Program-made: the position numbers and the translations under genes
Assembly: GCF_050859025.1 (NCBI RefSeq)
Contig: NZ_CP138200.1
Span: 1,931,495-1,955,494, forward strand
Length of the DNA stretch: 24,000 bases
Source of the DNA: Wukongibacter sp. M2B1
Lineage (GTDB): Bacteria; Bacillota; Clostridia; Peptostreptococcales; Caminicellaceae
Reading direction: 5' to 3'
Shown: piece after piece, positions 1 to 18,968 of the stretch
Layout of the letters: each line of letters begins with the position of its first letter
Position numbering within the stretch: position 1 is the first letter of the stretch
Notes under the pieces: model-generated
Seen by the model: the letters and a program-made list of their open reading frames with translations, nothing else
Told to the model about the DNA's origin: nothing
The model's database searches: none

Positions 1-345
1 TTAAATAATGTTATAAAATTAACAAGGTATTTTTGTAAAGATAAAGAAGATATGATAATGCTTGTGCAAGAGCTGGAACACATAGAGATTTTTTTACATT
101 TACAAAAGTTACGTTTTCAGAAGGAATTTAAATATGAGATAGAAGGAAAGTATGAATTAAATTCATTATTTATTAAGAGATTTTGTTTAATTGAACCAAT
201 TATGAGATTTTTCTTTAATCATATAGAGGTCCAGCCTGAAAGGAGAGAAATCAAGATCAATCTGAAGCATGAAAAAAATGAATTGGAGTTGCGTATTGAA
301 GATATATATTCTAATCTACTAAAAAAGTTTTCTTATTATATATAG
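1..345 (+). CDS. 3' end of a YesM/LytS-type sensor histidine kinase gene entering from upstream; ATP-binding domain degenerate and truncated
   Basis: Frame 1 is open from base 1, with no stop before the listed ORF at 52. The product parallels the C-terminal part of the neighbouring kinase (LVQELEHIEIFLHLQKLRF vs LEDELEMVQRYVYLQSQRF). The N-box position reads MRFFFNHI instead of ENAIIHG, and the protein ends before any DxGxG G-box. Confidence 0.5.
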   Translation, partial: LNNVIKLTRYFCKDKEDMIMLVQELEHIEIFLHLQKLRFQKEFKYEIEGKYELNSLFIKRFCLIEPIMRFFFNHIEVQPERREIKINLKHEKNELELRIEDIYSNLLKKFSYYI

Positions 346-486
346 ATATTTATTACTGGATGTAGATTCTAATTATAGAGAGTTCCAAGTAAATCTTAAT
401 TCATACATATCAAAATATCTGATGAATCTTAGGATTTCTAATGTTGGTGACTTGTATAGAAAATTGTAGCTAAGCTTAATAAGAGG

Positions 487-3595: not shown

Positions 3596-3632
3596 TTAAA
3601 TTTGATTTTGAAATAGCACAATTATGTTATAG

Positions 3633-3667
3633 AAAAAATAGCACAGCATAATAGTGCTATTTTTTTA
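3633..3667 (+). terminator. Rho-independent terminator after the two-component operon
   Basis: AAAAAATAGCAC / GTGCTATTTTTT inverted repeat with a 9-nt loop, followed by a T-run. Confidence 0.7.
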
Positions 3668-3810
3668 TATGATAGAAATTTAAAAATTGAGAATTTTGAA
3701 ATAAGCAATAGGATTGTGAATGTTATAACAAGATATTCTAGAGTAGAAAGATCACTATCATGTTACTATGTTTATGAAAATCAAAGGATATCAAAAAGGG
3801 GATGTTTGAA

Positions 3811-4587
3811 ATGGAAAATGTATTATTAAAAGTGGATGGTAAAATAGCAGAGGTTACAATTAATAGACCTAAAGCACTAAATGCGTTAAATAGTCAAACT
3901 TTAAGGGAACTAGGAGAGGTAATAAATAAATTAACTGAAGATGAAGAAATAAAGGTGGTTATCATAACTGGAGCAGGAGAAAAAGCCTTTGTAGCTGGTG
4001 CTGATATTACAGAAATGCAAAGCTTAAATGCTATTGAAGGTAGAAAGCTTGCTAGACTGGCTCAGAAAGTATTTTCTGCAATAGAAACTATGCCTCAGAT
4101 TGTTATTGCGGCAGTTAATGGTTATGCTTTAGGAGGCGGATGTGAGTTGGCTATGGCATGCGATATACGTTTTGCTTCTGCCAATGCTAAGTTTGGTCAA
4201 CCTGAAGTTACTTTAGGTATTATTCCAGGTTTTGCAGGGACACAACGACTACCAAGATTAGTAGGTAGAGGAGTTGCAAAGGAGCTTATTATTGGTGGAG
4301 ATATGATAAATGCTGAGGAAGCATACCGTATTAATTTGGCAAACAAAATATATAATTTAGAAGAATTACTACCAAAGACTAGAGAATTTGCTGAAAAAGT
4401 ATTAAGCAGGGGAACATTGGCAGTTAGTTTTGCGAAAACAGCAATAAATAATGGTATGAATATGGATACTGAATCAGCTTATAATTATGAAGCAGATTTA
4501 TTTGGTTTATGTTTCGCTACAGAGGATCAAAAAGAGGGAATGAAAGCCTTTATTGAAAAGCGTAAAGCAGAGTTTAAGGGCTGCTAA
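3811..4587 (+). CDS. crt: Enoyl-CoA hydratase / 3-hydroxybutyryl-CoA dehydratase (crotonase)
   Basis: Near co-linear with clostridial Crt as I recall it: VTINRPKALNALN, TGAGEKAFVAGADI, AAVNGYALGGGCELAMACDIR, FGQPEVTLGIIPGFAGTQRL, EDQKEGMKAFIEKRK. ATG 3811 has better spacing from the GGGGA RBS than ATG 3802 (same frame). Confidence 0.9.
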   Translation: MENVLLKVDGKIAEVTINRPKALNALNSQTLRELGEVINKLTEDEEIKVVIITGAGEKAFVAGADITEMQSLNAIEGRKLARLAQKVFSAIETMPQIVIAAVNGYALGGGCELAMACDIRFASANAKFGQPEVTLGIIPGFAGTQRLPRLVGRGVAKELIIGGDMINAEEAYRINLANKIYNLEELLPKTREFAEKVLSRGTLAVSFAKTAINNGMNMDTESAYNYEADLFGLCFATEDQKEGMKAFIEKRKAEFKGC

Positions 4588-4667
4588 ATAATGGTGAAAT
4601 AGTAGTTTAAACCGACTAACTTATTTCTGTGATGTTCTTTTTCATATTTATTTTTCGTTCACTTAAT

Positions 4668-4716
4668 CAGCCTGTTTTTCAATGTCATTTTACAAAGAAA
4701 AAACAGGCTGTTTGAA
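4668..4716 (+). terminator. Rho-independent terminator after crt
   Basis: CAGCCTGTTTTTC ... GAAAAAACAGGCTG inverted repeat (16-nt loop), followed by TTTG. Confidence 0.6.
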
Positions 4717-4836
4717 ATCATCTAAATAAAATATGAAAATACATATGTCTATCCATTTATAAGACTAAATTATATAACTCATTAGTGCAAGAGATTAATT
4801 GATAAAGTTTCTAGGATAATAGAGAGGAGTGAAAAC

Positions 4837-6441
4837 ATGAAGCTTAAGGTATTGACTGCTTCTGAGGCAGCTAAGCTAGTAAAGGATGGAGATACAATAG
4901 CTACAAATGGATTTGTTGGTAGTTCTAGTCCAGAGACATTAACATGTGCATTGGAAAAACGTTTTCTAAATACGGGGAGTCCAAAGAACCTATGTTTAGT
5001 ATATGCCGCTGGACAGGGAGATGGTAACAATAGAGGAGCTAATCATTTTGCCCATGAGGGAATGGTTAAAAGAGTAATAGGAGGGCATTGGAACTTAGCA
5101 CCGAAGATGGGGGAATTAGCCATAAATAATAAAATAGAGGCATATAACCTGCCACAAGGTGTAATATCCCATATGTTCAGGGATATTGCTGCTGGAAAAA
5201 TCGGAACCATAACCCATGTGGGCTTAAATACATTTGTTGACCCTCGAGTAGAGGGTGGAAAGCTAAATGAAAAGACAGTAGAGGACATAGTAGAAGTAGT
5301 GAAAATTGGAGAATATGAGAGACTTCTTTATAAGGCCTTTCCTATAAATGTTTTATTTGTTAGGGGTACGACCTCCGATGAGAAAGGAAATATTACTTTA
5401 GAAAAGGAGCCAGGTCCATATGATGCAATGGCTATGGCTCAAGCTGTGAAAAATTCTGGAGGTATAGTAGTTGTACAGGTACAGAGAATTGTAAAAAGTG
5501 GAACATTAAATCCGTGGATAGTAAAAATTCCTGGGATATATGTTGATGCAGTAGTTTTATCAAAACCAGAGGAACATGAGCAGTGCTTTGGAGAAATGTA
5601 TAATCCATCATATTCAGGAGAGGTGAGAATTCCAGAAGGAAGTATGGAGCCTCTAGAATTGAACGAAAGAAAAATTGTTGCACGTAGAGCGGCTATGGAG
5701 CTTGAGCCAAATACAATAGTAAATTTAGGTATTGGCATGCCTGAGACAATAGCAATGGTTGCAAATGAAGAGGGAATAGGTAACTATATGAACTTAACTG
5801 TTGAGGCGGGTCCAATAGGAGGTATACCAGCAGGTGGACTAAGTTTTGGTGCTGCGACAAATCCCGATGCAATATTAGACCAATCAACACAGTTTGACTT
5901 CTATGATGGTGGAGGACTTGATCTTGCATTTCTAGGTTTAGCTCAGGCAGATTGTGATGGTAATGTAAATGTAAGTAAGTTTGGTCCTCGGATTGCGGGC
6001 TGTGGAGGATTTATAAATATAACACAAAATGCTAAGAAAGTATTTTATTGTGGTACTTTTATGGCTGGTGGGTTAAAAATTGATGTTAAGGGCGGAAAAC
6101 TTGTAATTCTACAAGAGGGTAAAGTTAGTAAGTTCATTGAAGCTGTAGAACAAATCACCTTTAGTGGAGTATATGCACGTAAAATTGAACAGCCTGTTAT
6201 GTATATAACTGAAAGGGCAGTATTTGAACTAAGAGAAGACGGGTTATATTTAACAGAAATTGCTCCAGGAATAGATTTACAAAAGGATATTTTGGATTTA
6301 ATGGGCTTTAAGCCTAAGATAGATGGCCAGCCTAAACTGATGGATGAACGAATTTTCTATCCAGAAGCAATGGGAATAAATAATAAGGACTTAGAGGCTG
6401 ATTCATTAGGAATGTCAATATGTACAGATAAGACATCCTAA
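4837..6441 (+). CDS. pct: Family I acyl-CoA:carboxylate CoA-transferase, propionate CoA-transferase (Pct)/YdiF-like
   Basis: 534 aa, alignable along its length with Clostridium propionicum Pct as recalled: [113 protein letters not shown]. Substrate range (propionate, lactate, butyrate, 3-hydroxy acids) cannot be read from the sequence. Confidence 0.85.
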
Positions 6442-6544
6442 GCTTTCATTATTGAAAATTCCATTGATAGGTAGACATTATTTTTGTAAAGAATTGACTT
6501 AAGAAAATCAATATGTATTTATGCTTTTTTAAGAGGAGGATAAC

Positions 6545-7849
6545 ATGTTTGATATATTAATTTTGATTTTAGCACTAATACTATTTTCCGTTCTTGCTTT
6601 TAGAAGAATAAGTGCTATAATCTTGGGCCCTGTAGTTTCAATATTTGTAATAGTTCTTGCTAGACTGCCTATGTTTGAAACTCTATTGGGACCATATATG
6701 ATCGCGGCAGCAGGGTATATTCAGAAGTTTTTCCTTGTGTTTTTTGTAGGAGCAATTTTTGGAGCCATTATGGAAGATACGAGAGCAGCCGAATCTATTG
6801 CTCGTGGTCTAGTCAAGATCACAAAGGGAAGATGGGCAGCTCCAGTTGTAATGATAATAACGGGGGTATTGACTTACGGAGGTGTTAGTGGTTTTGTCGT
6901 ATTCTTTGCGATGTACCCTATTGCCCTCCAATTGTTTAAAAATACTAACATCTCAAGAAGGCTAATACCGGCTGCTATTTCAGCAGGAGCATGGACATGG
7001 TCTATGAGTGGTCCAGGAAGCCCATCGATTCAAAATATTATACCAATGAGATATTTGGGAACAGGAAGTACTGCTGCTCTTATACCTGCTATAGTAGGAG
7101 CCTTAGGACAATTAATCCTAATATTTTTATGGCTTGAATATAGGGGGAAATCACTGCGAAGAAGAGGTTATGAGTTTAATGATCCGTCCCTGAAGGCATT
7201 AGATGAGGTGGCTGCAACGGCAGAAGATGGAATAGAATTACCTAATCCGTGGCTATCAGCGATACCAGCAATAGCAATTTTAGTAACATTTAATATACTT
7301 AAGTTACCCGTAGAAGGAGCAGTAACAATTGGGATCATATTGGGAATCCTTCTTTTGTGGAAACAAAGAAATGGTGCTAATGAATGGATATCAACATTAA
7401 ATAGAGGATCTATAAATTCAGCTACTGCTATTCTTAACACAGCCATAGTTGTTGGATTTGCAGGAGTAGTAAAGGTAACTACGGGATTTGATAAAATTAT
7501 TAGCAGTTTAAAGAATCTAAAGCTCTCCCCAATGATATTTGTAGCAATAACATCGGCTATAGCTTCTGGAGCAGCAGGTTCTGCATCTGGAGGCTTAGGA
7601 ATTGCCTATGAAGCATTAAAGGACACCTATGTAAACATGGGTGTAAGCCTAGAGTATGTTCACAGAATATCGGTAATTGCAGCAGGAACATTTGATACAT
7701 TACCACATCAAGGGGCACAGATTACCTTATTGGCCATATGTGGATTAACCCATAAAGAAGGTTACTTTGATATAGCTATAACTCAAATTATAATACCTAT
7801 ATTAGTATTATTAGCACTTGTAATACCAATGGCTTCTATGGGATTGTAG
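6545..7849 (+). CDS. GntP-family (ion transporter superfamily) organic-acid permease
   Basis: 434 aa, about 11-12 hydrophobic helices. The N-terminal half follows the GntP pattern (GAIFGAIMEDTRAAESIARGLVKITKGRWAAPVVMIITGVLTYGGVSGFVVFFAMYPIA). No terminator between pct and this gene, so they are probably co-transcribed. Confidence 0.65.
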   Translation: MFDILILILALILFSVLAFRRISAIILGPVVSIFVIVLARLPMFETLLGPYMIAAAGYIQKFFLVFFVGAIFGAIMEDTRAAESIARGLVKITKGRWAAPVVMIITGVLTYGGVSGFVVFFAMYPIALQLFKNTNISRRLIPAAISAGAWTWSMSGPGSPSIQNIIPMRYLGTGSTAALIPAIVGALGQLILIFLWLEYRGKSLRRRGYEFNDPSLKALDEVAATAEDGIELPNPWLSAIPAIAILVTFNILKLPVEGAVTIGIILGILLLWKQRNGANEWISTLNRGSINSATAILNTAIVVGFAGVVKVTTGFDKIISSLKNLKLSPMIFVAITSAIASGAAGSASGGLGIAYEALKDTYVNMGVSLEYVHRISVIAAGTFDTLPHQGAQITLLAICGLTHKEGYFDIAITQIIIPILVLLALVIPMASMGL

Positions 7850-7856
7850 TTGATGG

Positions 7857-7907
7857 AAAAAAATCATTGTGTAAAGTTAAGTCTTACTTTACATAATGAT
7901 TTTTTTC
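7857..7907 (+). terminator. Rho-independent terminator after the permease gene
   Basis: Long inverted repeat AAAAAAATCATTGTGTAAAGT / ACTTTACATAATGATTTTTTT (one G-T position), ending in a T-run. Confidence 0.7.
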
Positions 7908-8082
7908 TATATAAAGCTAGGGAATGAAAATAAAAGACATTTAGCGCATATTTCAAAAAATATAAAATCGACAAAAATAGTCAAAGGAACTATGCGAAAA
8001 TTGTCTAATATTAATAGAGTTAAAGAAGTGGTTTTGATTTAGAAGAATTTAAAGAAGAGAAATAACTAAGGGAGCGTTAGTG

Positions 8083-9324
8083 ATGCGAAGAAAAGAGATA
8101 GGGGTTTATTTAGCACTATGCATATTCATTTTTATATTTTTACTTGGAGCCTGTAGACCAAATCAGAAGGCAGAAGAATATACACCAAAGGATGGAGAAA
8201 TACAGCTAATCGTTAATGATGTATCTAGTAAGCCCGATGGAGATATTGACTTTGTAAGTGTTTATTATAAAGAGAATAATTGTCATATTAAATATCAAGA
8301 TATAGAATACGAAAGAAGTGGATCTAGAAAAAGAACAACCATTTCTTTAAAGAATATTGATTGGAATAGGTCTAATGAATACTATGTATATATCAATTTC
8401 AGAGAACGCTTATATACTACAAAAGTGACTAAAGAAGATGTTGGCAAAAGCATTGTGATTAATTATGATAGAGACAATTATGGTAAACTGCAGGTATCCA
8501 TACCATTTGCTAAGGAAAATTATAAAATTGAGGATATTTTAGTGCATTATGATACTAGTGATGGAGAATTAGATAGCATTTATACAGGGGCATTTAGCAA
8601 TGATATAGATCTACCCTATGGAAAATATGATATTCAGATTAATGCATATGATGATGAAAATGTATATATTCTTTATAAGGAAAATGTTGTTATTGAAAAG
8701 GATTATAACTTAATTGAGTTCAATAGGAGTGATATAGCTAAGCTAAATATAAAAATTGACTATGGTGAATATAATGATGCAAAGATGGTTTTACTTAGTT
8801 CTTGCCATAAAGCAGGTAAATTCTCTCAGATAACAAGTTTAAGTAGTTCAGCGATTAAAGAAATAGCACAATTTGATAGTCTCTATGTTTTAAAGGGCAA
8901 ACAAGATATTTATATTCATATAAGAAATCAAGGATGGGATTATACTTTAGATAAATATCTAGACGTAAGGGAAGATGTAGAAATAAATCTCGATTTAGAC
9001 TTTCAAGCTAAGATTGAGGGCAAAGAAACAAAATTTCCACCGGGATTTGAATTAAATAGAAATATTAAGCCAATGTTTTGTTTTTATGATGGATATGGGA
9101 ATCTACTAGCTAATATAAATGAACCGCCGGGTGAGATAGTTGAGGGAATTGTAGAGTTTAAGAGGGGAGATAAAATCGAAAGTGAGAAATTTAATGAATT
9201 AGATTACATTAAAAATATCACTACTCCCGAAGAAACAGGAAACTATGAAATGACTTTAAAGCTAATTGGAGGACCGATAGAAATAAAATCGACAACAAAA
9301 GATATAGTAATTGATTTGGATTAA
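8083..9324 (+). CDS. Putative lipoprotein, function unknown
   Basis: Signal peptide ending in the lipobox LLGAC (MRRKEIGVYLALCIFIFIFLLGAC). The rest is hydrophilic and beta-rich-looking with no motif I recognise. ATG 8083 is 7 nt from the GGGAG RBS; the track lists GTG 8080. Confidence 0.6.
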   Translation: MRRKEIGVYLALCIFIFIFLLGACRPNQKAEEYTPKDGEIQLIVNDVSSKPDGDIDFVSVYYKENNCHIKYQDIEYERSGSRKRTTISLKNIDWNRSNEYYVYINFRERLYTTKVTKEDVGKSIVINYDRDNYGKLQVSIPFAKENYKIEDILVHYDTSDGELDSIYTGAFSNDIDLPYGKYDIQINAYDDENVYILYKENVVIEKDYNLIEFNRSDIAKLNIKIDYGEYNDAKMVLLSSCHKAGKFSQITSLSSSAIKEIAQFDSLYVLKGKQDIYIHIRNQGWDYTLDKYLDVREDVEINLDLDFQAKIEGKETKFPPGFELNRNIKPMFCFYDGYGNLLANINEPPGEIVEGIVEFKRGDKIESEKFNELDYIKNITTPEETGNYEMTLKLIGGPIEIKSTTKDIVIDLD

Positions 9325-9340
9325 GAATAGAAAGAAGAAT

Positions 9341-9374
9341 AAATGGAGAACTACTTCAGAGTAGTTCTCCATTT
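9341..9374. terminator. Bidirectional terminator between convergent lipoprotein and AbrB-like genes
   Basis: Perfect 14-bp inverted repeat AAATGGAGAACTAC / GTAGTTCTCCATTT with a 6-nt loop. A/T runs on both sides. Confidence 0.75.
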
Positions 9375-9379
9375 GAATT

Positions 9380-9622
9380 CTAAAGATTTACAATTTCATT
9401 TATACAATTTTGACAAATATGCTTACCCTTAAAGTTTTCTAAGTTATTTGTGTTATCACAAATTGAGCAATATTTTCTATATTCCATAAGAACAATAGAA
9501 GTAGAATTGACAAATATTTCTAATGGTGATTGGTATCCAATAGATAATTCTTGTCTCATTGACTTAGGGAGTTCAATACGTCCAACCTTATCTAGATGAT
9601 TAATGTACCTAGTTGATTTCAT
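9380..9622 (-). CDS. AbrB/SpoVT-fold transcriptional regulator with C-terminal CxxC...CxxC zinc ribbon
   Basis: The N-terminus (LDKVGRIELPKSMRQEL ... PLEIFVNSTSIVLMEY) matches the swapped-hairpin AbrB signature (vDxLGRivIPkeiR...leI). The C-terminus is CSICDN-x13-CQNC. Confidence 0.7.
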   Translation of the reverse strand: MKSTRYINHLDKVGRIELPKSMRQELSIGYQSPLEIFVNSTSIVLMEYRKYCSICDNTNNLENFKGKHICQNCINEIVNL

Positions 9623-9726
9623 TTAATAGTCCTCCTTTAATTGTATAATATAGCTTCTACTTCAAATCAATAAAAAATAATTCTTATATATTGATTAATT
9701 TATAAGATATTATAAATCAATAGGGA

Positions 9727-9733
9727 TGTCGAA
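9727..9733 (+). promoter_or_regulatory. Perfect Spo0A-box heptamer (TGTCGAA) about 105 bp upstream of the AbrB-like start codon
   Basis: Exact match to the 0A-box consensus TGNCGAA. One of only three exact TGTCGAA sites I found by eye on either strand of the window. abrB promoters are classical Spo0A targets. Confidence 0.35.
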
Positions 9734-10087
9734 ACATAGAAAAACAGGACGAATAAATTTAATTTAATTAAATTTTTACAATCCCTGATAAATTATAAAC
9801 ATTATAAAATTATGTATAGTATTACAATTTCAGCAATACGGCTTATTAAAGCCAAATTTGAAAAAATTAGAAAAACTTTATTAGGGACTTATGTCCTATT
9901 AAAATTAATTATGATAATGAGAATTAAATAATATGAATTTTAAAGGGGCTAAGGTAATATAATTACTGTCAACATGGATATGGAGATTATTAAGCATGAA
10001 GAGTAATTTAAAATGAACATTACAAATTGAAATACTAAAACTCCTCTTTGCATTGTCCTAACAAGGAGGAGTCTAGATTTAAACTAT

Positions 10088-10540
10088 TTATTTTTTCATG
10101 GTCTTATCAGCGAACTCAGTTATAACTATTTCTGAGTATGGGGCTCTTTTTTCAAGTCCTATTGCCTGATCTATAATATCCATCATGTGATTAAGTCCTT
10201 CTTCGGTTAATATTAAATCAGGTTTCCAAGTATCTTGGGCCTTATATCTTGCTACTAAAGAAACCAGAACTTCTAAATCAGAATCTGGGAAATGAGGTTG
10301 CAGTGATTTAGCAATTTCTTCAGCACTGTGGTTCTCAACCCATTTCATACCCTTATAAATCCCGTTTGTAAATCCTTGGATTATCTCAGGTTTTTTTTCG
10401 ATATAGCTCTTTTTAGCTGAGTAGCAAGTATAAGGAATGTATCCCCCTTCTTTTCCTATTGAAGCTACTATATAGCCAGCACCTTCTTTTTCCATCATGG
10501 TTGCTGTGGGTTCAAATAGGGTAACATTACCATTTGCAAT
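10088..10540 (-). pseudogene. 3' fragment of an NMT1/SsuA/TauA-like ABC substrate-binding-protein gene, truncated by prophage insertion
   Basis: The reading frame is open upstream of the listed Met (…IANGNVTLFEPTATMMEKEGAGYIVASIG…) up to a TAA at 10541-10543. There is no start codon or signal peptide. Only about 150 C-terminal residues of a normally ~330-aa protein are present, and the recombinase gene begins 35 bp further on. Confidence 0.65.
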
Positions 10541-10574
10541 TTACCTCCATGTAAAAACTAAGCAATTTCAAACT

Positions 10575-12083
10575 TTACAACTTCAAGTAAAACTCTAAAT
10601 CAAAATCTTTCATACCACTATCTTTGTTTTTGGTATATATAATTTTGTCAATGATGCTACTCAAAAAAATATTTTTTTCTTCGGCGTCAACTTCATAATA
10701 ATATGTTTTTAAGAATTCAATACTATTATTAATAAATGGTAACTGGTTTTCTTCAATATTTTTTATCTTCCTTAAACTAGATATTTTCTTCTGTAATTTT
10801 TCTATATCATTATTAGCAACTTCGATTTTGAAAGATAAGGTGTTCATTCTGTTTAGGAAAGTAGCATTATTATATATACCTTGTTCTAATAAATCATACA
10901 ATTTTTCCTTTTGTAGATTTAGTGTTTTAATAAGCTTAATATTTGATTGGATAGTATCCTTTATAACTTTCAATTCAGCACTTTCTACATTTTTCTTGTT
11001 TTTTATAAATTCAAATCTTATTTTTTCTAATTCTTCAATAACAATTTTTACAACTCTCTCTTCAATTAAATATATATAACTTGATTTTACTTTACCACAA
11101 TCCTTGTAACATCTAATATTATCAGGCTTATTCTTTTGAGTTCGGATAGTCATTGTACGGCCACAACCACCACATACAATTAGACCAGCCAGTGGATTTC
11201 TACGCTTTCTATTATCTCGTTTCCTAGGGTTATGTCTTTCTTTTGCAAGTGATTGGGCTTTTTCAAAAATTGTTTCATCTATAATCGCGTCATGTTTACC
11301 TTCAAATACTATCCAATCTTTTCTGTCTTGAAGTCTAGATATTTTTTTACCATCATTGTCGTATCTCTCGATCTTTTTACCCCAAACAATTTTACCCGTA
11401 TAGACAGGGTTTTTCAATATAGTTCTTACAGTAGTTCTATCCCAATTCAAATTATTGTTAGCATTAGGAATTTTATTTTCAATTAAATATTTAGCTATTT
11501 TAGAGTCTCCAAAATCTTGATTTACATACAGATGAAAAATCAATTTAACAACATTAAATTGAGTTTCATGGAATATTAATGTCTTGCCTTCTTTTTTATA
11601 TCCAAAAGGAGCAACAGCACCAATGTAATTACCTTCTTCAAGACTTTTCATCCTCCCACGATGAAGACGTTTCTTTATAATTTTCAGTTCTCTCCGAGCC
11701 ATAAATGCTTCAAACTCACTAAATTCTTCATCAAACTCATTGCTAAGATCATAAATTTTTCTTGGCGTAATGATCTTTGTATCATATCCCTTAAAAGTCT
11801 CCAGAATAAGTCCCTGTTCACGCATATTACCCCTACCAAGCCTATCTATATCCATAACTAATACTGCCTCGTATTTGCCATCCTCGACTTCTCTAAGCAA
11901 TTCCAACATTTTAGGTCGCCTAGTGATAGATTCACCCGAAACAACTTCTTCTTTTATATCTATTATAGTATAATTATTTTTTTGTGCATATGCCAATAGG
12001 GTAGTTCGATGCCTGCTTAAAACTTCCTCATTGGACATATTCTCTTCAGCTCTAGATTTTCTTAAGTAAATACAAACATTCAT
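10575..12083 (-). CDS. Large serine recombinase (phage integrase)
   Basis: 502 aa. The N-terminal resolvase catalytic domain has the YLRKSR nucleophile motif and VMDIDRLGR. It is followed by a recombinase domain, a zinc ribbon (CGGCG ... C-x3-C) and a C-terminal coiled coil. Confidence 0.9.
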   Translation of the reverse strand: MNVCIYLRKSRAEENMSNEEVLSRHRTTLLAYAQKNNYTIIDIKEEVVSGESITRRPKMLELLREVEDGKYEAVLVMDIDRLGRGNMREQGLILETFKGYDTKIITPRKIYDLSNEFDEEFSEFEAFMARRELKIIKKRLHRGRMKSLEEGNYIGAVAPFGYKKEGKTLIFHETQFNVVKLIFHLYVNQDFGDSKIAKYLIENKIPNANNNLNWDRTTVRTILKNPVYTGKIVWGKKIERYDNDGKKISRLQDRKDWIVFEGKHDAIIDETIFEKAQSLAKERHNPRKRDNRKRRNPLAGLIVCGGCGRTMTIRTQKNKPDNIRCYKDCGKVKSSYIYLIEERVVKIVIEELEKIRFEFIKNKKNVESAELKVIKDTIQSNIKLIKTLNLQKEKLYDLLEQGIYNNATFLNRMNTLSFKIEVANNDIEKLQKKISSLRKIKNIEENQLPFINNSIEFLKTYYYEVDAEEKNIFLSSIIDKIIYTKNKDSGMKDFDLEFYLKL

Positions 12084-12173: not shown

Positions 12174-12824
12174 CTATTGTTGGATGTAACAATTTTGCAT
12201 TTTAAAATAATTCCCATCTTTAATAGTTACATATTTACTATTTTCAAAAGTATCATTGCTTATTATAGAATCTATAGTTCCTAAGTTATTCTTAGCAACT
12301 TCAACATATGGCATAGTACCATCAGAAAGAACTTTATATTCGCCAGCTGGAATATCAAATCCTACTTTATATTTACCAGCAATATATTTACCATCCACAG
12401 GTTCATATTTTGGAGCTTCTTTTATTGGGACTGCATAGCAACCTTGGAGTTTTACATACTGCCCATCGCTAATAGATATATAGGAAAATGTTGAGAAATT
12501 ATCATTTGCAATTATACTATCAAAATTTCCTGAACTATCTTTATTAATTTCATAATAGGACATAGCTCCGTTTCCGAATAATTTGTATTCACCAGATGGC
12601 AGATCAGTTCCAATTTTGTAATCTCCGGCTTTGTATTTTGTAAACTTTTCTTCTGGACTAGATTTTTCTTTAGCTTTTTCATTTTCAGGTGTTTCCTTGC
12701 TTTCGATGTTTGCAGCTTCTTTAGATACTTCATCTTGGGATTTCTTATCCCCACCACCTGCTATAGCACCTATAACTATTAGGGCAACAATAGCAATTCC
12801 TATCCATTTTAAAATCTTTTTCAT
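12174..12824 (-). CDS. Membrane-anchored protein with an internally duplicated ~70-aa extracytoplasmic domain, function unknown
   Basis: N-terminal TM anchor (WIGIAIVALIVIGAIAGG) and a K/E-rich linker. Two clearly related repeats follow: YKAGDYKIGTDLPSGEYKLF...DSIIANDNF...ISISDGQYVKLQGCY and YIAGKYKVGFDIPAGEYKVL...DSIISNDTF...VTIKDGNYFKMQNCY. Confidence 0.6.
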   Translation of the reverse strand: MKKILKWIGIAIVALIVIGAIAGGGDKKSQDEVSKEAANIESKETPENEKAKEKSSPEEKFTKYKAGDYKIGTDLPSGEYKLFGNGAMSYYEINKDSSGNFDSIIANDNFSTFSYISISDGQYVKLQGCYAVPIKEAPKYEPVDGKYIAGKYKVGFDIPAGEYKVLSDGTMPYVEVAKNNLGTIDSIISNDTFENSKYVTIKDGNYFKMQNCYIQQ

Positions 12825-12897
12825 AAGTCTCCTCCTTAGATATAATAATTTGCAGAATTATTATATAATACTAGTCATGTAATATTTTAGCAAAACA

Positions 12898-12904
12898 TGT
12901 CGAA
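12898..12904 (+). promoter_or_regulatory. Perfect Spo0A-box heptamer (TGTCGAA), distal site in the divergent promoter region of the agr-like operon
   Basis: Context: AACATGTCGAAAAT. Exact 0A-box consensus. Confidence 0.35.
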
Positions 12905-12989
12905 AATACAAAAATATATTTTGAATTTGAATAGTTTCTATTTGTCAAGGCAAAAACTTAAATTGGTAAAAATTACAATATAAATGGGA

Positions 12990-13007
12990 ATGTTGAAAAT
13001 TCAACAT
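12990..13007. promoter_or_regulatory. 18-bp perfect palindrome, candidate operator upstream of the agr-like operon
   Basis: ATGTTGAA-AA-TTCAACAT, about 75 bp upstream of the 13081 start codon. Confidence 0.35.
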
Positions 13008-13017
13008 CTGCAAAAAA

Positions 13018-13024
13018 TGTCGAA
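13018..13024 (+). promoter_or_regulatory. Perfect Spo0A-box heptamer (TGTCGAA), proximal site about 60 bp upstream of the agr-like operon
   Basis: Context: AAAATGTCGAATTT. Same orientation as the distal site, 120 bp away. Confidence 0.35.
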
Positions 13025-13080
13025 TTTCTTAAATTTTCACAAGTAAAAAAAAATGTTACTATTAAAAAAGAGGAGGGATT

Positions 13081-13965
13081 ATGAATATGTATGTAGATAT
13101 TAATAAAATATTGCTAATAGGTATGCCAGAAACACTTTTAAATATACTATTTGGATTACTAATTTATAAAGGAAGAGAATCTCTAAAAGAAAAAAGTAAT
13201 ATTTGGAAGATTTCATTAATATCTATTGTATTCCCATTATTAGCTTTTAGTATAAAAGGTTACTTAAATAATAGCATTCAAATTCAAATGATACCTGCAT
13301 TGATTATCTTAATTATTTTTATAAAAGTATTGTGGAAAACGAATGTCAGGTGTGCTTTTTTAATGAGTGCAATGGCAACTTTCATAACGTCTATAGGTGA
13401 AATTGCAACAATGCAACCTGTATCAGGTTATATTAAAAATATAATTGCTTTACATGGCTTTATGCATATAAAAGCATTAATAATATGGACTATTCCAACA
13501 AGAATAATTCAATTAATTACTATTTTAGTAGTATATAAATTCAATTTAACATTTAAGAATAATAAATTGCTTTATGGTGAATGGAATGAATTATCTTCAA
13601 CACAGAAAATGACAACTTATAGCTTATTCATACATTTACTAATATCAATCACTATTAGTACAGGCTATGTTGAAATCTTTGTAAAAGCTATGAATAGAAA
13701 TATGTCTATTGACTTTATTAAAATCCCATTAATTGTAATGCTGTTTGGCTCACTTTACATTATCTTTTCAGCATTAAATATATTATTTAGACAAACATTG
13801 TTGGAAGACATAAAAGGTTTATTTTCCCAGGGGGCAAGTAAATTATTCGAAAATATGCTTGAAGCTAGTAACGAGGAAAGACTTTTAGATTACAAGTTGC
13901 AACTTGATAATAAAATGAAAGAATTATCATTAAATGAAAGGAGAGAATCGAATGAAAAAGTTTAG
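13081..13965 (+). CDS. Polytopic (6-7 TM) membrane protein resembling the sensor module of AgrC-type receptors but lacking any kinase domain
   Basis: 294 aa. Six to seven hydrophobic helices span the first ~240 residues. A ~55-aa charged, coiled-coil-like tail follows (…EERLLDYKLQLDNKMKELSLNERRESNEKV) with no His, no H-box and no N/G boxes. The 3' end overlaps the agrD-like start by 14 nt. Confidence 0.5.
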   Translation: MNMYVDINKILLIGMPETLLNILFGLLIYKGRESLKEKSNIWKISLISIVFPLLAFSIKGYLNNSIQIQMIPALIILIIFIKVLWKTNVRCAFLMSAMATFITSIGEIATMQPVSGYIKNIIALHGFMHIKALIIWTIPTRIIQLITILVVYKFNLTFKNNKLLYGEWNELSSTQKMTTYSLFIHLLISITISTGYVEIFVKAMNRNMSIDFIKIPLIVMLFGSLYIIFSALNILFRQTLLEDIKGLFSQGASKLFENMLEASNEERLLDYKLQLDNKMKELSLNERRESNEKV

Positions 13966-14092
13966 CAAGTATTTTCGATATTTATTAGTAGGAACAGGAG
14001 TGCTTCTAATATTTCAAGCTTTAGCTACAAATCCATCAATGGCTTGCCTAGTTGGAGCACATCAAAATGAAACTCCAGATTGCATGAAATAA
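13952..14092 (+). CDS. agrD: AgrD-like autoinducing-peptide precursor (46 aa; below the ORF-track size cutoff)
   Basis: Translation: MKKFSKYFRYLLVGTGVLLIFQALATNPSMACLVGAHQNETPDCMK. AAAGGAGAG RBS lies 7 nt upstream. It has a basic plus hydrophobic leader, a Cys followed by 4 residues, then an HQ-x-E-x-P tail. C. perfringens AgrD has the same layout (…ATSACLWFTHQPEEP…), as does C. difficile AgrD1 (…CPWIIHQPKVP…), both as I recall them. Confidence 0.7.
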   Translation: MKKFSKYFRYLLVGTGVLLIFQALATNPSMACLVGAHQNETPDCMK

Positions 14093-14156
14093 TAGCATTA
14101 CAAATAGATTAATATAAATGAAAGGGCCCTTCATTTATAAAATTAGGTGATATCTA

Positions 14157-14834
14157 ATGATTAAAGCAGTTTTTATTGATGATACAATGGAATATTTGCA
14201 ATGTATTCAAGAATATATGGGAGACTACTTTAAAGAAAAAGGAATATCATTCAAAACTTATTTGATGAAAGACAAGAATGATGATATAAGAATAGAAAAT
14301 GAAATAGTAAAAGAACAACCTGATCTTATATTCTGTGATATGGCTATGCCCCATTGTGACGGCTCTACGCTAATCAAGAGAATCACAAAGATTTATAAAC
14401 CCACAACAATTCTAATTAGTGCAGTTGAGAAAATCAATATCCACAAAGATGAGTTTGATTATATACTAAGGAAACAAATGGATCTTGATATTCTTAAGGA
14501 AGCAATAAATTTAATTATTAGAAGTTTTGAACTTCAAGAAGAACTTACGATTGATGAAATTTTATCAATTGAGTTTCCATACTTGAAATATACTGAAAGA
14601 ATGTATCTAAGAGAAATTGTAAGAAAGTTCAAAGATGTTGAAAATCCTAAAAAAGTTAAAGTTTCTGATATTTCTAGAGCAACAAATAAAGAAGTACATA
14701 CAACAATAGATAGAATTAACAGATTTATAAAAAAAATGTTTAAAGAGAAAATTGATAGAGACTTATTTTTATTTGAGCTATTGAAAGTAGTTTATAAAAG
14801 GGGTTTTCCGAATGATAAACGAAACAGCGAGTAA
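14157..14834 (+). CDS. Response regulator with Spo0A-like C-terminal DNA-binding domain
   Basis: The REC domain has all key residues: FIDD, DLIFCDMAMPHCDG (compare Spo0A DIIMPHLDG), ILISA, YILRK. The C-terminal half parallels Spo0A_C: ERMYLREIV vs GYLYLREAI, and NKEVHTTIDRINRFIKKMF vs TTASRVERAIRHAIEVAW. No LytTR domain. Confidence 0.55.
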   Translation: MIKAVFIDDTMEYLQCIQEYMGDYFKEKGISFKTYLMKDKNDDIRIENEIVKEQPDLIFCDMAMPHCDGSTLIKRITKIYKPTTILISAVEKINIHKDEFDYILRKQMDLDILKEAINLIIRSFELQEELTIDEILSIEFPYLKYTERMYLREIVRKFKDVENPKKVKVSDISRATNKEVHTTIDRINRFIKKMFKEKIDRDLFLFELLKVVYKRGFPNDKRNSE

Positions 14835-15426
14835 AATTAGCAAACTTTTATCAGGACCTGTTTCTGATTCAAAATATTTTGAGGAGTTTTCTAAAGATGA
14901 GATAGAGAATATTATTACATATAATATGGTTAACAATATAAAACAGTGGATTTGGATAATAGCTCTTTTACTATCCACTTGGTTATTACTAATTGCTGGC
15001 ATTGATATAAGGTTTACAACATTGATTATATTTATAACGATTGTAGCATTTCGAAGCAGATTTGGAGGATATCACGCGGATTCTGCAAAAGTATGTATAA
15101 TAATAAGCACAATTATTCCAATTGTCTGTGCATATATAACCATATTTTTAGATTTCAATTTATATCTTATTGTTACTGTGTATATATTTGCATATTTTAC
15201 AGCATTTAAAAAAGGTGTTGTGGACCATCCAAATCGTAGGTTTCAAGAAGGTAACAAAATATTAAATTTAGAAATGAAAAGAAGGCTTTTCAAGACAGGC
15301 GTTATTTTACTAGTTGCCATTAATATAATCCATATACATCTGTTTTTAATTGGCTATGTTTCAATAAGCGATGCAATGACATTGGGAACATTGATTAGTT
15401 TTATAAACTTATATTTTGGGAAATAG
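14812..15426 (+). CDS. agrB: AgrB-family membrane peptidase/cyclase
   Basis: 204 aa with about 5-6 TM helices. It has the hallmark catalytic motif FRSRFGGYHADSAKVC (AgrB consensus R..aGG.HA.s...C with the essential His and Cys). A downstream VDHPNRRF ... KRR basic loop resembles AgrB (a.tpnkP...k.kk). Overlaps the regulator gene by 23 nt. Confidence 0.8.
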   Translation: MINETASKISKLLSGPVSDSKYFEEFSKDEIENIITYNMVNNIKQWIWIIALLLSTWLLLIAGIDIRFTTLIIFITIVAFRSRFGGYHADSAKVCIIISTIIPIVCAYITIFLDFNLYLIVTVYIFAYFTAFKKGVVDHPNRRFQEGNKILNLEMKRRLFKTGVILLVAINIIHIHLFLIGYVSISDAMTLGTLISFINLYFGK

Positions 15427-15515
15427 AGATTTTTTTAGAAAGGGTACCTAAATCATCATTTGGATTCGTATTCTTATTATAGGGACTCTAAGCTTTTCTA
15501 AAGGGGGGAGGATTG

Positions 15516-15653
15516 ATGGATAGGGATAAAATAAAGAAAGACACTGAATCTCAATCTAATAAGGATGCAAAGAAAGAAATATGTACCAATCTCCCAAAGA
15601 CTTTTTCTAGAATAGTTGATGATGAAATAATCATAACTAAAAAGAGAGAATAA
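15516..15653 (+). CDS. 45-aa hydrophilic peptide ORF downstream of agrB, function unknown
   Basis: Translation: MDRDKIKKDTESQSNKDAKKEICTNLPKTFSRIVDDEIIITKKRE. A very strong RBS (AAGGGGGGAGG) lies 4-5 nt upstream. It ends just before the bidirectional terminator. One Cys, and no signal or amphipathic leader. Confidence 0.45.
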   Translation: MDRDKIKKDTESQSNKDAKKEICTNLPKTFSRIVDDEIIITKKRE

Positions 15654-15654
15654 T

Positions 15655-15682
15655 AAATACCTCAGTTGTGTCTGAGGTATTT
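15655..15682. terminator. Bidirectional terminator between the agr-like operon and the convergent repressor gene
   Basis: Perfect 11-bp inverted repeat AAATACCTCAG / CTGAGGTATTT with a 6-nt loop. Confidence 0.75.
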
Positions 15683-15693
15683 CACATTGGAAA

Positions 15694-16086
15694 CTATTTA
15701 TTTTTATATTTCTTTTTTACTTCTATATATATCTTTAATCCTTCAATTAAGTCATCCGGATCTATTTCTTCCTTTTTCATTTTTTTTGCAAATTCAATAT
15801 ATTTAATATTTTGAGAAGCAAATAGTTCACGGTACTCTTCTGGTACTAGTGGAGTCAATTCTTCTTTACTATATGTTTGCTTTGATGGATTTCTATCATT
15901 CGTTCTACATAGTAAATAATCTATTGATACATCAAAGTAATCTGCCATCTTTCTTAAAGTATTAGAATCCGGATCTCTTTTCCCTTTTTCATAGGCACTA
16001 ATAGTTTGCTGAGTAACTTGGAATACTTCAGCAAATTCACTTTGACTTAATCCTTTTTCTTTTCTCAACATTGCAATCCTATTCAT
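15694..16086 (-). CDS. CI-like phage repressor (XRE-family HTH)
   Basis: MNRIAMLRKEKGLSQSEFAEVFQVTQQTISAYEKGKRDPD... is a classic HTH_3, followed by a ~65-aa C-terminal domain. Start placed at ATG 16084-16086 behind an AAAGGTGA RBS. The 184-aa track ORF merely reads on through the operator region. Confidence 0.85.
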   Translation of the reverse strand: MNRIAMLRKEKGLSQSEFAEVFQVTQQTISAYEKGKRDPDSNTLRKMADYFDVSIDYLLCRTNDRNPSKQTYSKEELTPLVPEEYRELFASQNIKYIEFAKKMKKEEIDPDDLIEGLKIYIEVKKKYKNK

Positions 16087-16119
16087 ATAATCACCTTTTT
16101 TTTTATTCCTTTCTATTAT

Positions 16120-16134
16120 ACAACTTTTAGTGGT
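16120..16134. promoter_or_regulatory. Degenerate fourth operator copy next to the leftward (repressor) promoter
   Basis: ACAACTTTTAGTGGT matches ACAAC-N5-GTTGT with one arm mismatch. It touches a minus-strand TATAAT at 16115-16120. Confidence 0.4.
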
Positions 16135-16167
16135 TAAAGAAAAACAGAAAAATGTTGTATTTTTGTA

Positions 16168-16196
16168 TTGACTACAACAAATAGTTGTGATATTAT
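16168..16196 (+). promoter_or_regulatory. Rightward early promoter (PR-like)
   Basis: TTGACT (16168-16173), a 17-bp spacer, then TATTAT (16191-16196; TATAAT also at 16194-16199). The spacer is occupied by operator O1. Confidence 0.55.
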
Positions 16197-16215
16197 AATT
16201 ACAACAAATAGTTGT
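16174..16215. promoter_or_regulatory. Two identical 15-bp palindromic operators (16174-16188 and 16201-16215) flanking the -10 of PR
   Basis: ACAACAAATAGTTGT occurs twice exactly, 27 bp centre to centre, between the divergent repressor and cro-like genes. Confidence 0.75.
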
Positions 16216-16237
16216 TATTGTTGAAGGAGGTGTTATC

Positions 16238-16471
16238 TTGAGAGACATTTTAATAAATCTACGTGGTAAAAAAAGTCAATCAGAAGTTGCTGAAAAACTT
16301 GGAATCACTCAACAGTTTCTTAGTGCCATAGAAAGAGAAGAGAAGAACCCCAGCATTACCATTATGCGGAAATTTGAGGAACACTATAATAAGAGCATGG
16401 TTGAGCTGTTTCCCGATATTTTTTTAAGAGAAAATACAACAAATAGTTGTAAAATAGCAACAATTAATTAA
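16238..16471 (+). CDS. Cro-like XRE-family HTH protein
   Basis: 77 aa. TTG start 7 nt after the GAAGGAGG RBS. HTH: KSQSEVAEKLGITQQFLSAIEREEKNPS. Divergent from the repressor gene. Confidence 0.8.
   Translation: MRDILINLRGKKSQSEVAEKLGITQQFLSAIEREEKNPSITIMRKFEEHYNKSMVELFPDIFLRENTTNSCKIATIN
16436..16450. promoter_or_regulatory. Third exact operator copy inside the 3' end of the cro-like gene
   Basis: ACAACAAATAGTTGT again, 235 bp downstream of the 16201 copy. Confidence 0.65.
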
Positions 16472-16530
16472 CCCTATGATTGTAAATACAACAAAAAATC
16501 TAGATGGAAGTACTGAAAGGAGATAAAATC

Positions 16531-16723
16531 ATGAATCGAAAAAAAAGAAATCAAAATATCTGCACTAAAAGAAATATTTCCAATTTCAGATCCAAATGAT
16601 GAATTACTATTCTTAGCGCACAACATAGTTGAAAAAGGTGCAGAAAAGAAACTTAACTATAAGGATATGGAAACACTAATCAATTATACTCAAATCCTAC
16701 TTAAACAAAGAACATTTATCTAA
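16531..16723 (+). pseudogene. Small early ORF interrupted at an A8 homopolymer
   Basis: An ATG at 16531 follows an AAAGGAG RBS, and its frame stops after 22 codons. The +1 frame is open from 16547 to 16723 (EIKISALKEIFPISDPNDELLFLAHNIVEKGAEKKLNYKDMETLINYTQILLKQRTFI) but has no start. One A fewer in the 16539-16546 tract would fuse them. Confidence 0.3.
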
Positions 16724-18074: not shown

Positions 18075-18968
18075 TTGATTATAGGTATTGACAAAGGTAG
18101 TGCGTACACAAAGACTAGCAAGGATGTAATTATTAAAAGTACGGTACGAGATTTAAGTGAAGATGACATAAATCTAAATGATAGCCTATTCATTGAAATG
18201 GATGGAGAAGAACACTTTGTAGGTGGAGAAGGTAGTTTTGCAACTGATCTTAAGAAAGCAGAGCATAAGAGTACTAGAATCCTCACTTATACAGCTATAG
18301 CAAAGAGTTTTGAGGAAACTCTTATAAATACTGATTTAGTATTAGGACTGCCAATAGGGCATTATTCACGCAATAAAGATAAAATGAAGGAACTGTTTAA
18401 TGGGAAGTCTGCGACGATTAGCATTAATGGTAATCAGAAAGTAATTAAAATCATGAATGTTGAAGTATTTCCTGAGTGTGCAGCTGCTAAATTCACCCAA
18501 AATATAGATAGTGGACTGTTCATTGATATAGGAGGACTCAGTGTAGACAATGCTCTATTCAAAAATGGAAAGCTCGAAAAACACTCTACATTTACTATGG
18601 GAACCATGAAACTACTTTCTAAAATCGCAGATTATCTAAATGCAGAACATGATTTATCCCTAACAGAATGGGGAGCTGAAGAAATACTAAAAGATGGATT
18701 GACCATAGATGGCGAGGTAATAGACATAAAGTCAGGCACAGAGGAAGTTATCAGAGATCATGTTAAAAAGATTCTTGAAAGAATTAAGCTTCAATATGAT
18801 ACGAGGATGATTAAAAACATAATCTTTACAGGCGGCGGAAGCCTTATGTGCTTTGATTTTTTTAAGAAATACATACCACAAGCTACGAGGATGGAAAATA
18901 CTCAATTTAGCAATGCTAAAGGCTTTGAACTTATAGGAAGAAAATTGTTTGGTGGTAACGATGCTTAA
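18075..18968 (+). CDS. parM: ParM/StbA-family actin-like ATPase
   Basis: TTG start after the TAGGAGGGA RBS. Actin-fold motifs: phosphate-1 IIGIDKGSAYTKT, phosphate-2 LFIDIGGLSVDNALF, adenosine IIFTGGGSLM. Confidence 0.75.
   Translation: MIIGIDKGSAYTKTSKDVIIKSTVRDLSEDDINLNDSLFIEMDGEEHFVGGEGSFATDLKKAEHKSTRILTYTAIAKSFEETLINTDLVLGLPIGHYSRNKDKMKELFNGKSATISINGNQKVIKIMNVEVFPECAAAKFTQNIDSGLFIDIGGLSVDNALFKNGKLEKHSTFTMGTMKLLSKIADYLNAEHDLSLTEWGAEEILKDGLTIDGEVIDIKSGTEEVIRDHVKKILERIKLQYDTRMIKNIIFTGGGSLMCFDFFKKYIPQATRMENTQFSNAKGFELIGRKLFGGNDA

Follow-up and report, generated by a model that had tools for sequence, protein, structure and literature searches.

A prophage agr-type cassette with an atypical response regulator and a putative link to host Spo0A

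Peptide-signalling genes of the agr type are known from temperate phages of clostridia, and the closest described set is agr3 of the Clostridioides difficile phage phiCDHM1 (PMC3901668). Phage agr genes, known since phiCDHM1, have been described without a response regulator, an absence also stated for phage agr sets in a 2025 review (PMC11945551), and whether and how phages read such signals has stayed open. Here we analyse a 24,000-nucleotide stretch of the genome of Wukongibacter sp. M2B1 (contig NZ_CP138200.1, positions 1,931,495 to 1,955,494; the window), in which a prophage carries an open reading frame (ORF) for an atypical response regulator (14157-14834, forward strand) inside a four-gene cassette of the agr type. 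We lean, if only slightly, towards the view that the product of this ORF is the output regulator of an agr-type cassette for peptide signalling that is borne by the phage and gated by host Spo0A. A preliminary description of the same ORF had presented it as a phage-encoded, Spo0A-like regulator; its observation of a real prophage regulator is borne out in part, whereas the view of the gene as a Spo0A copy is not, and the neighbouring agr-type genes were not described there.

The cassette shares features with several known systems and is distinct from each of them. Like agr3 of phiCDHM1, it combines AgrB and an AgrD-like peptide in an accessory cassette of a temperate clostridial phage, and its GC content (27% versus 31%) is likewise lower than that of the phage. 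Unlike the window cassette, which has a regulator and a kinase-less seven-transmembrane (7-TM) protein, phiCDHM1 has the AgrC histidine kinase and no response regulator, and it shows no sequence similarity to the window AgrB, regulator or 7-TM protein (tblastn, 50,697 phage records). The canonical agrBDCA loci (S. aureus; L005 from Ruthenibacterium) resemble the cassette in the His/Cys pair of AgrB, in an AgrD-like Cys with a four-residue ring and a charged tail, and in a polytopic membrane protein with a receiver-domain regulator alongside. The cassette departs from them in a candidate sensor without DHp or ATPase domains, in an orphan helix-turn-helix (HTH) domain instead of LytTR, in the gene order (candidate receptor, peptide, regulator, AgrB) and in the 0A boxes of its promoter. 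Finally, the arbitrium system AimR/AimP of SPbeta-like phages also places a phage peptide signal and a regulator in the lysogeny module, with peptide variants between phages. Arbitrium, however, relies on unrelated chemistry and proteins, with a linear hexapeptide and an intracellular TPR receptor in place of the cyclic peptide (predicted to be made by AgrB), the membrane protein and the receiver-domain regulator of the window cassette. If our reading is correct, this would be the first phage agr-type set with its own response regulator, paired with a kinase-less receptor-like membrane protein, and it raises the mechanistic question of how a receiver domain signals without a cognate kinase.

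Composition and conservation of the cassette

Positions 1 to about 9400 of the window are host DNA, and the prophage follows. The cassette comprises four co-oriented genes in the order 7-TM protein, AgrD-like propeptide, response regulator and AgrB, with a hairpin between the second and the third:

13081-13965, forward strand: 7-TM membrane protein, 294 amino acids (aa), from topology prediction; orphan family
13952-14092, forward strand: AgrD-like propeptide, 46 aa; five homologues at the same gene position
14116-14136, forward strand: hairpin in the spacer that separates the AgrD-like gene from the regulator gene; its apex is the palindrome AAGGGCCCTT at 14122-14131
14157-14834, forward strand: atypical response regulator, 225 aa, intact ORF with an ATG start; Pfam Response_reg and family conservation
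14812-15426, forward strand: AgrB-type membrane peptidase, 204 aa; Pfam PF04647 and an AgrB-like NCBIfam match

The genes of the 7-TM protein and the peptide overlap by 14 nt and those of the regulator and AgrB by 23 nt, and the two pairs are parted by a 64-nt spacer. The cassette is flanked on one side by a serine integrase and a sie-like gene and on the other by a convergent CI-like repressor and a divergent Cro-like gene, and genes for ParM-like, replication-initiator and sigma-like proteins lie 3' beyond CI/Cro. The integrase, the divergent CI/Cro-type pair and the replication genes close by mark a lysogeny module of a temperate phage, as they do in the related loci L001, L002 and L004. 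That the regulator is phage-borne, as the preliminary description held, is thus supported by an intact 225-aa ORF between integrase and CI with ParM-like and replication-initiator genes nearby. Its remark that the cassette encodes no kinase also stands, as domain searches found no kinase domain in the window cassette or in the homologous cassettes of L001, L002 and L004.

The family to which the regulator belongs is extremely rare. Two relatives were found in a collection of 5.8 billion clusters, two more by an exhaustive HMMER search and one more by context look-ups, and the family amounts to about seven loci among billions of proteins; intact regulator ORFs of 209-225 aa are present in six loci. 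In L001, L002 and L004 all four genes recur in unchanged order, adjoining CI/Cro-like genes on phage-like contigs, with a serine integrase in L001 and a tyrosine integrase, an amidase and a ParM-like gene in L004. On L003, a fragment of 1.4 kb, only the 3' part of the 7-TM gene is present, followed by the genes of the peptide and the regulator, and the fragment ends inside a fourth ORF. In addition, the genome of the window itself holds a second copy on the same contig, with a regulator (P0003) that is 62% identical and a 7-TM protein (P0005) that is 64% identical, which suggests either two related prophages or two pherotypes in one host. Outside these loci the searches were largely negative. 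Megablast of the cassette and of window positions 1-12000 gave no match among the 50,697 phage records, and tblastn against the same records gave one generic receiver match for the regulator and none for AgrB or the 7-TM protein. Profile scans of genome contigs and viral contigs returned no match with the regulator alignment, and only the distant canonical agr locus L005 with the AgrB alignment. A metagenome scan yielded 28 loci, mostly with matches in the receiver range; the one inspected (L008) encodes a YesN-like AraC regulator.

The three proteins that accompany the regulator also have conserved features. In the AgrD-like peptide, a hydrophobic leader is followed by an invariant Ala-Cys, by four ring residues that vary (LVGA, WSIG, WHVA, WYAA and AHLA in the five loci) and by a conserved tail, HQNETPDxMK, that includes a Pro. 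AgrB matches PF04647 with an E-value of 4e-17, and also an AgrB-like NCBIfam model, and has an invariant H88...C95 pair, seven residues apart. The 7-TM protein has seven predicted transmembrane segments in an N-out/C-in topology and a conserved cytoplasmic helical tail of 55 aa. Across five homologues, identity is 61% on the cytoplasmic face and 37% in the predicted extracellular parts, a pattern expected of a receptor for a variable ligand, and the tail is strongly conserved (RQTLLEDLK...MLEASNEE...DYKLQL). The 7-TM protein has no kinase domain (DHp, HATPase_c_5), and its tail has no His conserved across the homologues. It belongs to an orphan family of about five members that always occupies the first position of the cassette, and its gene position, topology and conservation pattern make it a candidate peptide receptor. 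A weak likeness of the 7-TM family to PCNA in a PDB profile search was judged spurious.

Receiver and effector domains of the regulator

The regulator consists of a receiver domain (about aa 1-122) and an orphan helical HTH effector domain (about aa 126-215). Pfam Response_reg (PF00072) matches with 34.1 bits, compared with a gathering score of 30.2, and aligns aa 48-117 only, and a PDB profile search with the regulator returned receiver domains only. The phosphorylation pocket (D8/D9, D61, S88 and K106) is invariant across six relatives that share 33-63% identity, with the exception of one D8 to E change, and relative P0008 has the canonical K-P at the K106 position. About 15% of the alignment columns are invariant overall, and by our own estimate all catalytic positions would be among them by chance with a probability of about 6e-4. 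The earlier statement that the receiver retains all phosphorylation residues therefore extends to the family.

Other parts of the receiver are less typical. S88 is separated from the beta5 strand by only 12 residues, and because this short stretch gaps against canonical receivers in the PDB-search alignments, helix alpha4 looks shortened; the full-length AlphaFold model, built on a three-sequence alignment, was too poor beyond aa 88 for use. The MPHCDG string, which the preliminary description had likened to Spo0A, is present at aa 64-69, but the family conserves only the generic MPxxDG (MP[HYFCM][CVL]DG), and RssB has MPQIDG in the alignments; MPxxDG is common among receivers. The best NCBIfam match of the regulator is the Spo0A equivalog model TIGR02875, which scores 33.7 bits against a cutoff of 200 and covers model positions 3-123 of 262, that is, the receiver only. 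The Spo0A model is also the best NCBIfam match for all six receivers, with the LytTR-type BtsR about equal.

Taken together, the ORF is a real, conserved and atypical response regulator. Only the rarity of the family would speak for a chance ORF or a decaying pseudogene without function, and this explanation is effectively refuted by the intact ORFs in six loci, the invariant catalytic residues, the overlapping (probably coupled) neighbouring genes and the conserved upstream elements.

The receiver also bears on how the regulator might be controlled. One explanation, which we regard as unlikely, is a switch that is independent of phosphorylation, in which the tail of the 7-TM protein sequesters the regulator, peptide binding frees it, and the Asp pocket is structural or binds Mg2+ only. 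The streptococcal pairs of a membrane inhibitor and a LytTR regulator, HdrRM and BrsRM, offer a likeness for such sequestration. It would account for a 7-TM protein with no kinase domain and no conserved tail His, for the strong conservation of the cytoplasmic loops and tail, and for the short region between S88 and beta5. The invariance of the phospho-acceptor residues, including S88 and K106, would however be unexpected at 33-63% identity if phosphorylation were irrelevant.

The effector domain also bears on the proposed relationship to Spo0A. In one explanation, unlikely in our judgement, the regulator is a diverged Spo0A derivative that is phosphorylated by host orphan sporulation kinases and binds 0A boxes itself, thereby autoregulating the cassette and competing or cooperating with host Spo0A at host promoters. 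The absence of a kinase from the cassette fits this explanation, and the NCBIfam ranking of the six receivers fits it as well, although the receiver matches BtsR about as well as Spo0A. At the level of sequence, no method ties the C-terminal domain to Spo0A_C. No Pfam match to Spo0A_C (PF08769) was obtained at E<=10 in any of six family members, and Spo0A C-domains are absent from the PDB matches of an hmmsearch with the C-domain profile. When 1.84 billion representative proteins were searched by HMMER with a C-terminal profile of 100 aa, three proteins matched, all of them family members and none of them Spo0A. For a direct comparison, we used a Spo0A_C reference alignment of 8 sequences, in which the B. 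subtilis C-domain was checked against 1LQ1 and six more came from gut virome contigs; hhalign gave a probability of 0.5% (P 0.11) and aligned only the 27-column HTH. Membership of the regulator in the Spo0A family is thus not supported, having failed every sequence test.

The strings that had suggested a parallel with the Spo0A effector, MYLREIV (149-155) and TTIDRINRFI (182-191), are present in the regulator, but the proposed pairing of TTIDRINRFI with SRVERAIRHAI differs from the one chosen by hhalign: the hhalign register, which by our reading also keeps the hydrophobic core, is shifted by one residue. In this register the recognition-helix signature of Spo0A, SRVERAIRHAIE, is not kept, the corresponding helix of the regulator being HTTIDRINRFIK, and Spo0A E213/R214 fall opposite I184/D185 (in our numbering), two positions that vary across the family (D/A/Y/N/E/M and R/R/R/I/Q/N). 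The earlier remark that the recognition-helix residues differ from those of Spo0A is therefore correct. The recognition helix also differs by locus (HTTIDRINRF, HTIMARVRKL, RTISNILKRV and HTLMMNLKKI), whereas K178, H181 and T182 at its start are conserved, a point in favour of a Spo0A derivative.

Structure prediction gives a more ambiguous picture. The AlphaFold model of aa 119-225, from a 5-sequence alignment, has a pLDDT of 82 and a pTM of 0.74, and contains five helices versus the six of the Spo0A_C fold. Against the PDB, Foldseek gave no match to this model at E<=0.001. Two Spo0A C-domains, 1FC3 and 1LQ1, rank first among its global matches, which would favour a Spo0A derivative, with TM scores of 0.49-0.56 over about 100 columns, a root-mean-square deviation (rmsd) of 4.1-4.4 A, 16-19% identity and a Foldseek probability of 0.93, but their E-values of 0.5-0.9 are non-significant. 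The next matches are the LuxR/NarL types VraR, RcsB, FixJ, StyR and VpsT and sigma region 4, and the LuxR types are similar by probability. Foldseek of the model against a viral library returned generic HTH matches only.

Compared with Spo0A (TIGR02875, PF08769, 1FC3/1LQ1), the regulator thus has the same layout of a receiver followed by a helical HTH domain of about 100 aa, with a model TM score of about 0.5 and a 0A-box core in its cassette promoter, and clostridial Spo0A, too, lacks a dedicated adjacent kinase. The effector of the regulator, however, lacks sequence homology, SRVERAIRHAIE and helix E, and the regulator is encoded in a prophage agr-type cassette. With NarL/FixJ regulators (VraR, RcsB) it shares a receiver and a C-terminal tetrahelical HTH, of which the four-helix core superposes with an rmsd of 3.4 A and a TM (target) of 0.6. 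Structural likeness to the LuxR type is limited to this core; the window effector has an extra N-terminal helix and a 10-residue loop between core helices 1 and 2. Sequence searches do not point to another class: GerE (PF00196) gave no Pfam match at E<=10 and an hhalign probability of 0.2%, and LytTR (PF04397), which is present in the canonical locus L005, was not matched in the regulator by Pfam. By its modelled multi-helix topology, the effector is a borderline case that may be described as an orphan HTH with a Spo0A_C/LuxR superfold, and its helices may be arranged in a Spo0A-like way.

Spo0A C-domain matches (31-74% identity) were also noted in 'Bacteriophage sp.' gut virome records, namely on MT835614.1 (L034, 3001-3339) and 14 others, all unverified contigs. 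Among the six virome Spo0A_C contigs inspected, one carries a Spo0A_C-like ORF of about 113 aa that stands alone, and several others resemble ordinary bacterial spo0A; these spo0A-like contigs may be host contamination.

Spo0A boxes at the cassette promoter

A link between the locus and Spo0A biology is found upstream of the cassette, in a region that the preliminary description had singled out for DNA-binding experiments:

12825-13080, forward strand: cassette promoter region, from the sie-like gene to the 7-TM gene; intergenic, with boxes and -10 conserved relative to three related loci
12898-12904, forward strand: distal TGTCGAA box (Spo0A-box core) within the repeat GCAAAACATGTCGAA; distal equivalents at 121-bp spacing in L001 and 82-bp spacing in L002
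13018-13024, forward strand: proximal TGTCGAA box, at about -51 to -45 from the inferred transcription start; fixed offset to the -10 in four loci
13054-13062, forward strand: extended -10 TGTTACTAT, with TGnTAnnAT conserved in all four loci; putative promoter function

TGTCGAA is the experimentally defined core of the 0A box in B. subtilis and C. difficile (PMC3485338). The region holds two 15-nt repeats, GCAAAAnATGTCGAA, each with a perfect TGTCGAA (at 12898 and 13018), and the position of these cores is conserved in the related phages. The proximal box stands just 5' of a weak -35, and its distance to the extended -10 is 36, 36, 35 and 36 bp in the window, L001, L002 and L004, despite a diverged spacer sequence. 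The 24-kb window contains three perfect TGTCGAA, compared with 0.92 expected. In L001 the single TGTCGAA of the locus lies in the equivalent promoter region, followed 121 bp downstream by a TGTCGAT; in L002 both TGTCGAA of the locus lie in the promoter region, as does the single one of L004. Altogether, six of the seven TGTCGAA of the four loci fall within the promoter region of about 250 bp (p about 8e-11, as a simple product of positional probabilities). A promoter and terminator scan performed no better than on shuffled sequence, and a k-mer comparison of the cassette promoter with the remainder of the window, made to find shared motifs, yielded only noise, with one exact 14-mer within a coding region.

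Phages phi29 and Nf use host Spo0A boxes (PMC2731898), and in them, as may be the case here, 0A boxes in phage DNA couple phage development to sporulation via host Spo0A. Their boxes, however, act on early lytic promoters and on the replication of lytic phages, whereas the window boxes are those of a temperate phage and lie in the promoter of its signalling cassette. From the conserved motifs, host Spo0A is the probable binder of the cassette boxes, and it is favoured because the recognition helix of the regulator varies between loci while the box stays constant. Putative binding of the boxes by the regulator itself we consider unlikely. The perfect box cores in the regulator's own promoter, conserved in four loci, are what one would expect of a diverged Spo0A that autoregulates its cassette; on the other hand, the positions of E213/R214 are variable in the family while the box is invariant.

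Two kinds of lineage-specific repeats lie beside the proximal box. GGYAAAAAYnnnAAT occurs twice at 16-bp spacing in the window (12949-12980) and in L001 (4431-4461), and CACGTCAYTTT stands directly 5' of the box in L002 (about 420-432) and L004 (8837-8901). Both kinds are candidate operators of the regulator itself, which would change together with its recognition helix. The third TGTCGAA of the window (9727-9733) lies about 105 bp upstream of an ORF of 80 aa (9380-9622, reverse strand), of which the N-terminus (VGRIELPKSMRQEL) has an AbrB/SpoVT-type look by eye, with no Pfam support. The abrB gene is a classic Spo0A target.

A second conserved element lies in the spacer between the peptide and regulator genes. 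The apex palindrome AAGGGCCCTT is invariant in the window (14122-14131), L001 (5575-5584), L002 (1499-1508), L003 (363-372) and L004 (9964-9973), where it is found 30-33 nt upstream of the regulator ATG in every locus. It occurs as a single copy in each of L001-L004, as does AGGGCCCT in the 24-kb window, where the palindrome AAAGGGCCCTTT spans 14121-14132. In the lower stem of the hairpin (14116-14136), four of the six pairs show covariation. The gap from the hairpin to the ribosome-binding site is too short to hold a promoter, so that expression of the regulator and agrB probably depends on read-through. The hairpin may act in attenuation or in RNA stability, or a protein may bind at its apex; Rfam over 12700-16600 gave nothing relevant.

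These elements can be combined into a working model of a Spo0A-gated cassette. All four genes would be transcribed from a single promoter that combines a weak -35 with an extended -10 and that would depend on an activator (most likely Spo0A~P of the host) bound to the conserved TGTCGAA box around -51 to -45. The cassette would then be switched on by Spo0A~P activation as the lysogen enters stationary phase or sporulation. AgrB would cleave the AgrD-like peptide and cyclise it at the invariant Cys by means of H88 and C95, giving a five-residue thiolactone ring in which the four non-Cys residues vary between phages. The 7-TM protein, with variable predicted extracellular segments and a conserved cytoplasmic face and tail, would sense this peptide. 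Since it has no kinase domain, its action on the regulator would be indirect, either by gating phosphorylation by a host donor or by binding and releasing the regulator. The active regulator would bind DNA via its HTH and control the cassette and/or lysogeny-lysis or host genes. The preliminary description suggested that the regulator could read, or compete for, the host sporulation signal; because the gene is embedded in an agr-type cassette, a dedicated peptide is the more obvious input.

Several points weigh against this model. The AgrD assignment is made by sequence features without profile support, the peptide having no Pfam or other profile match, as expected at such a short length. Sequence searches detected no similarity between the 7-TM protein and AgrC, or any protein outside its own orphan family (no match in Pfam, NCBIfam or PHROG; hhalign probability of 0.3% against an AgrC). 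The regulator itself could be what binds the 0A boxes. Few and partly related sequences, from about seven loci, underlie the comparative statistics. More generally, we infer every functional step, binding and signalling alike, from the observed gene content, conservation, domain assignments, boxes with their fixed spacing, and hairpin.

A more far-reaching version of the model would be an 'agr-type arbitrium', in which the kinase-less 7-TM protein passes a phage-specific cyclic-peptide signal directly to an orphan regulator with a previously undescribed DNA-binding domain, and host Spo0A switches the module on. The prophage could then match the timing of induction, lysogeny or spore entrapment to phage density as well as to the sporulation state of the host. 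We consider this version rather unlikely. The probable host strain, Wukongibacter baidiensis M2B1, has been cultured and its metabolomics published, so that the predicted peptide and the promoter wiring are directly testable.

Phage and host surroundings

The genes on either side of the cassette place it between the integrase and CI of the prophage:

10575-12083, reverse strand: prophage integrase (large serine recombinase), leftmost in the lysogeny module; Pfam Resolvase, Recombinase and Zn_ribbon_recom
12174-12824, reverse strand: sie-like gene, divergent from the cassette promoter; its 216-aa product is membrane-anchored, has two internal repeats and weakly matches superinfection-exclusion proteins in PHROG
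15513-15653, forward strand: small hydrophilic ORF of about 45 aa, 3' of agrB; ORFs of comparable size at the same place in L001, L002 and L004
15694-16086, reverse strand: CI-like repressor (HTH_3), convergent with the cassette; Pfam, and arrangement repeated in L001, L002 and L004
16238-16471, forward strand: Cro-like gene, divergent from CI; CI/Cro arrangement repeated in L001, L002 and L004

This setting bears on what the cassette may control. It is possible, if somewhat unlikely, that the cassette is a lysogenic-conversion moron that provides lysogens with a private quorum signal and regulates host genes (sporulation, toxins, metabolism), with no role in the choice between lysis and lysogeny. 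Its position between the integrase/sie genes and CI is typical of a moron, it has its own promoter and a lower GC content, and the CI/Cro intergenic region contains no 0A box or cassette motif. The authors of the phiCDHM1 study likewise proposed host-directed roles for phage agr genes (PMC3901668). Against a moron, the cassette is found only in phage contexts, always beside CI, and the two paralogous copies in one genome are reminiscent of phage-specific pherotypes; both of these counterpoints are nevertheless compatible with host targets.

The small ORF 3' of agrB may be a fifth gene of the cassette. It encodes 36-49 aa and is located at 15513-15653 (forward strand) in the window, 6972-7109 in L001, 2904-3014 in L002 and 11295-11444 in L004, and only the versions of the window and L001 are clearly similar in sequence (...LPxT...I.D.EI.I...). 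The CI gene is part of a mechanical ORF of 184 aa (15694-16248, reverse strand), in which the start is probably M55 (16086), giving an HTH_3 repressor of 130 aa; the 54 codons 5' of M55 are rich in Thr, Cys and Ile and overlap the CI/Cro intergenic region. An actin-like partition protein (ParM/ALP_N) is encoded at 18075-18968 (forward strand) in the window, at 6517-7413 in L002 and at 2599-3537 in L004, and its presence in these integrase-carrying phages hints at a plasmid-like maintenance option.

On the host side, about 7 kb from the prophage end, lies a two-component pair (487-3595, forward strand) that is unrelated to the cassette and consists of a Cache-HAMP-His_kinase-HATPase sensor and a receiver/AraC-type regulator. 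Genes for an enoyl-CoA hydratase, a CoA-transferase and a transporter are found downstream of this pair.

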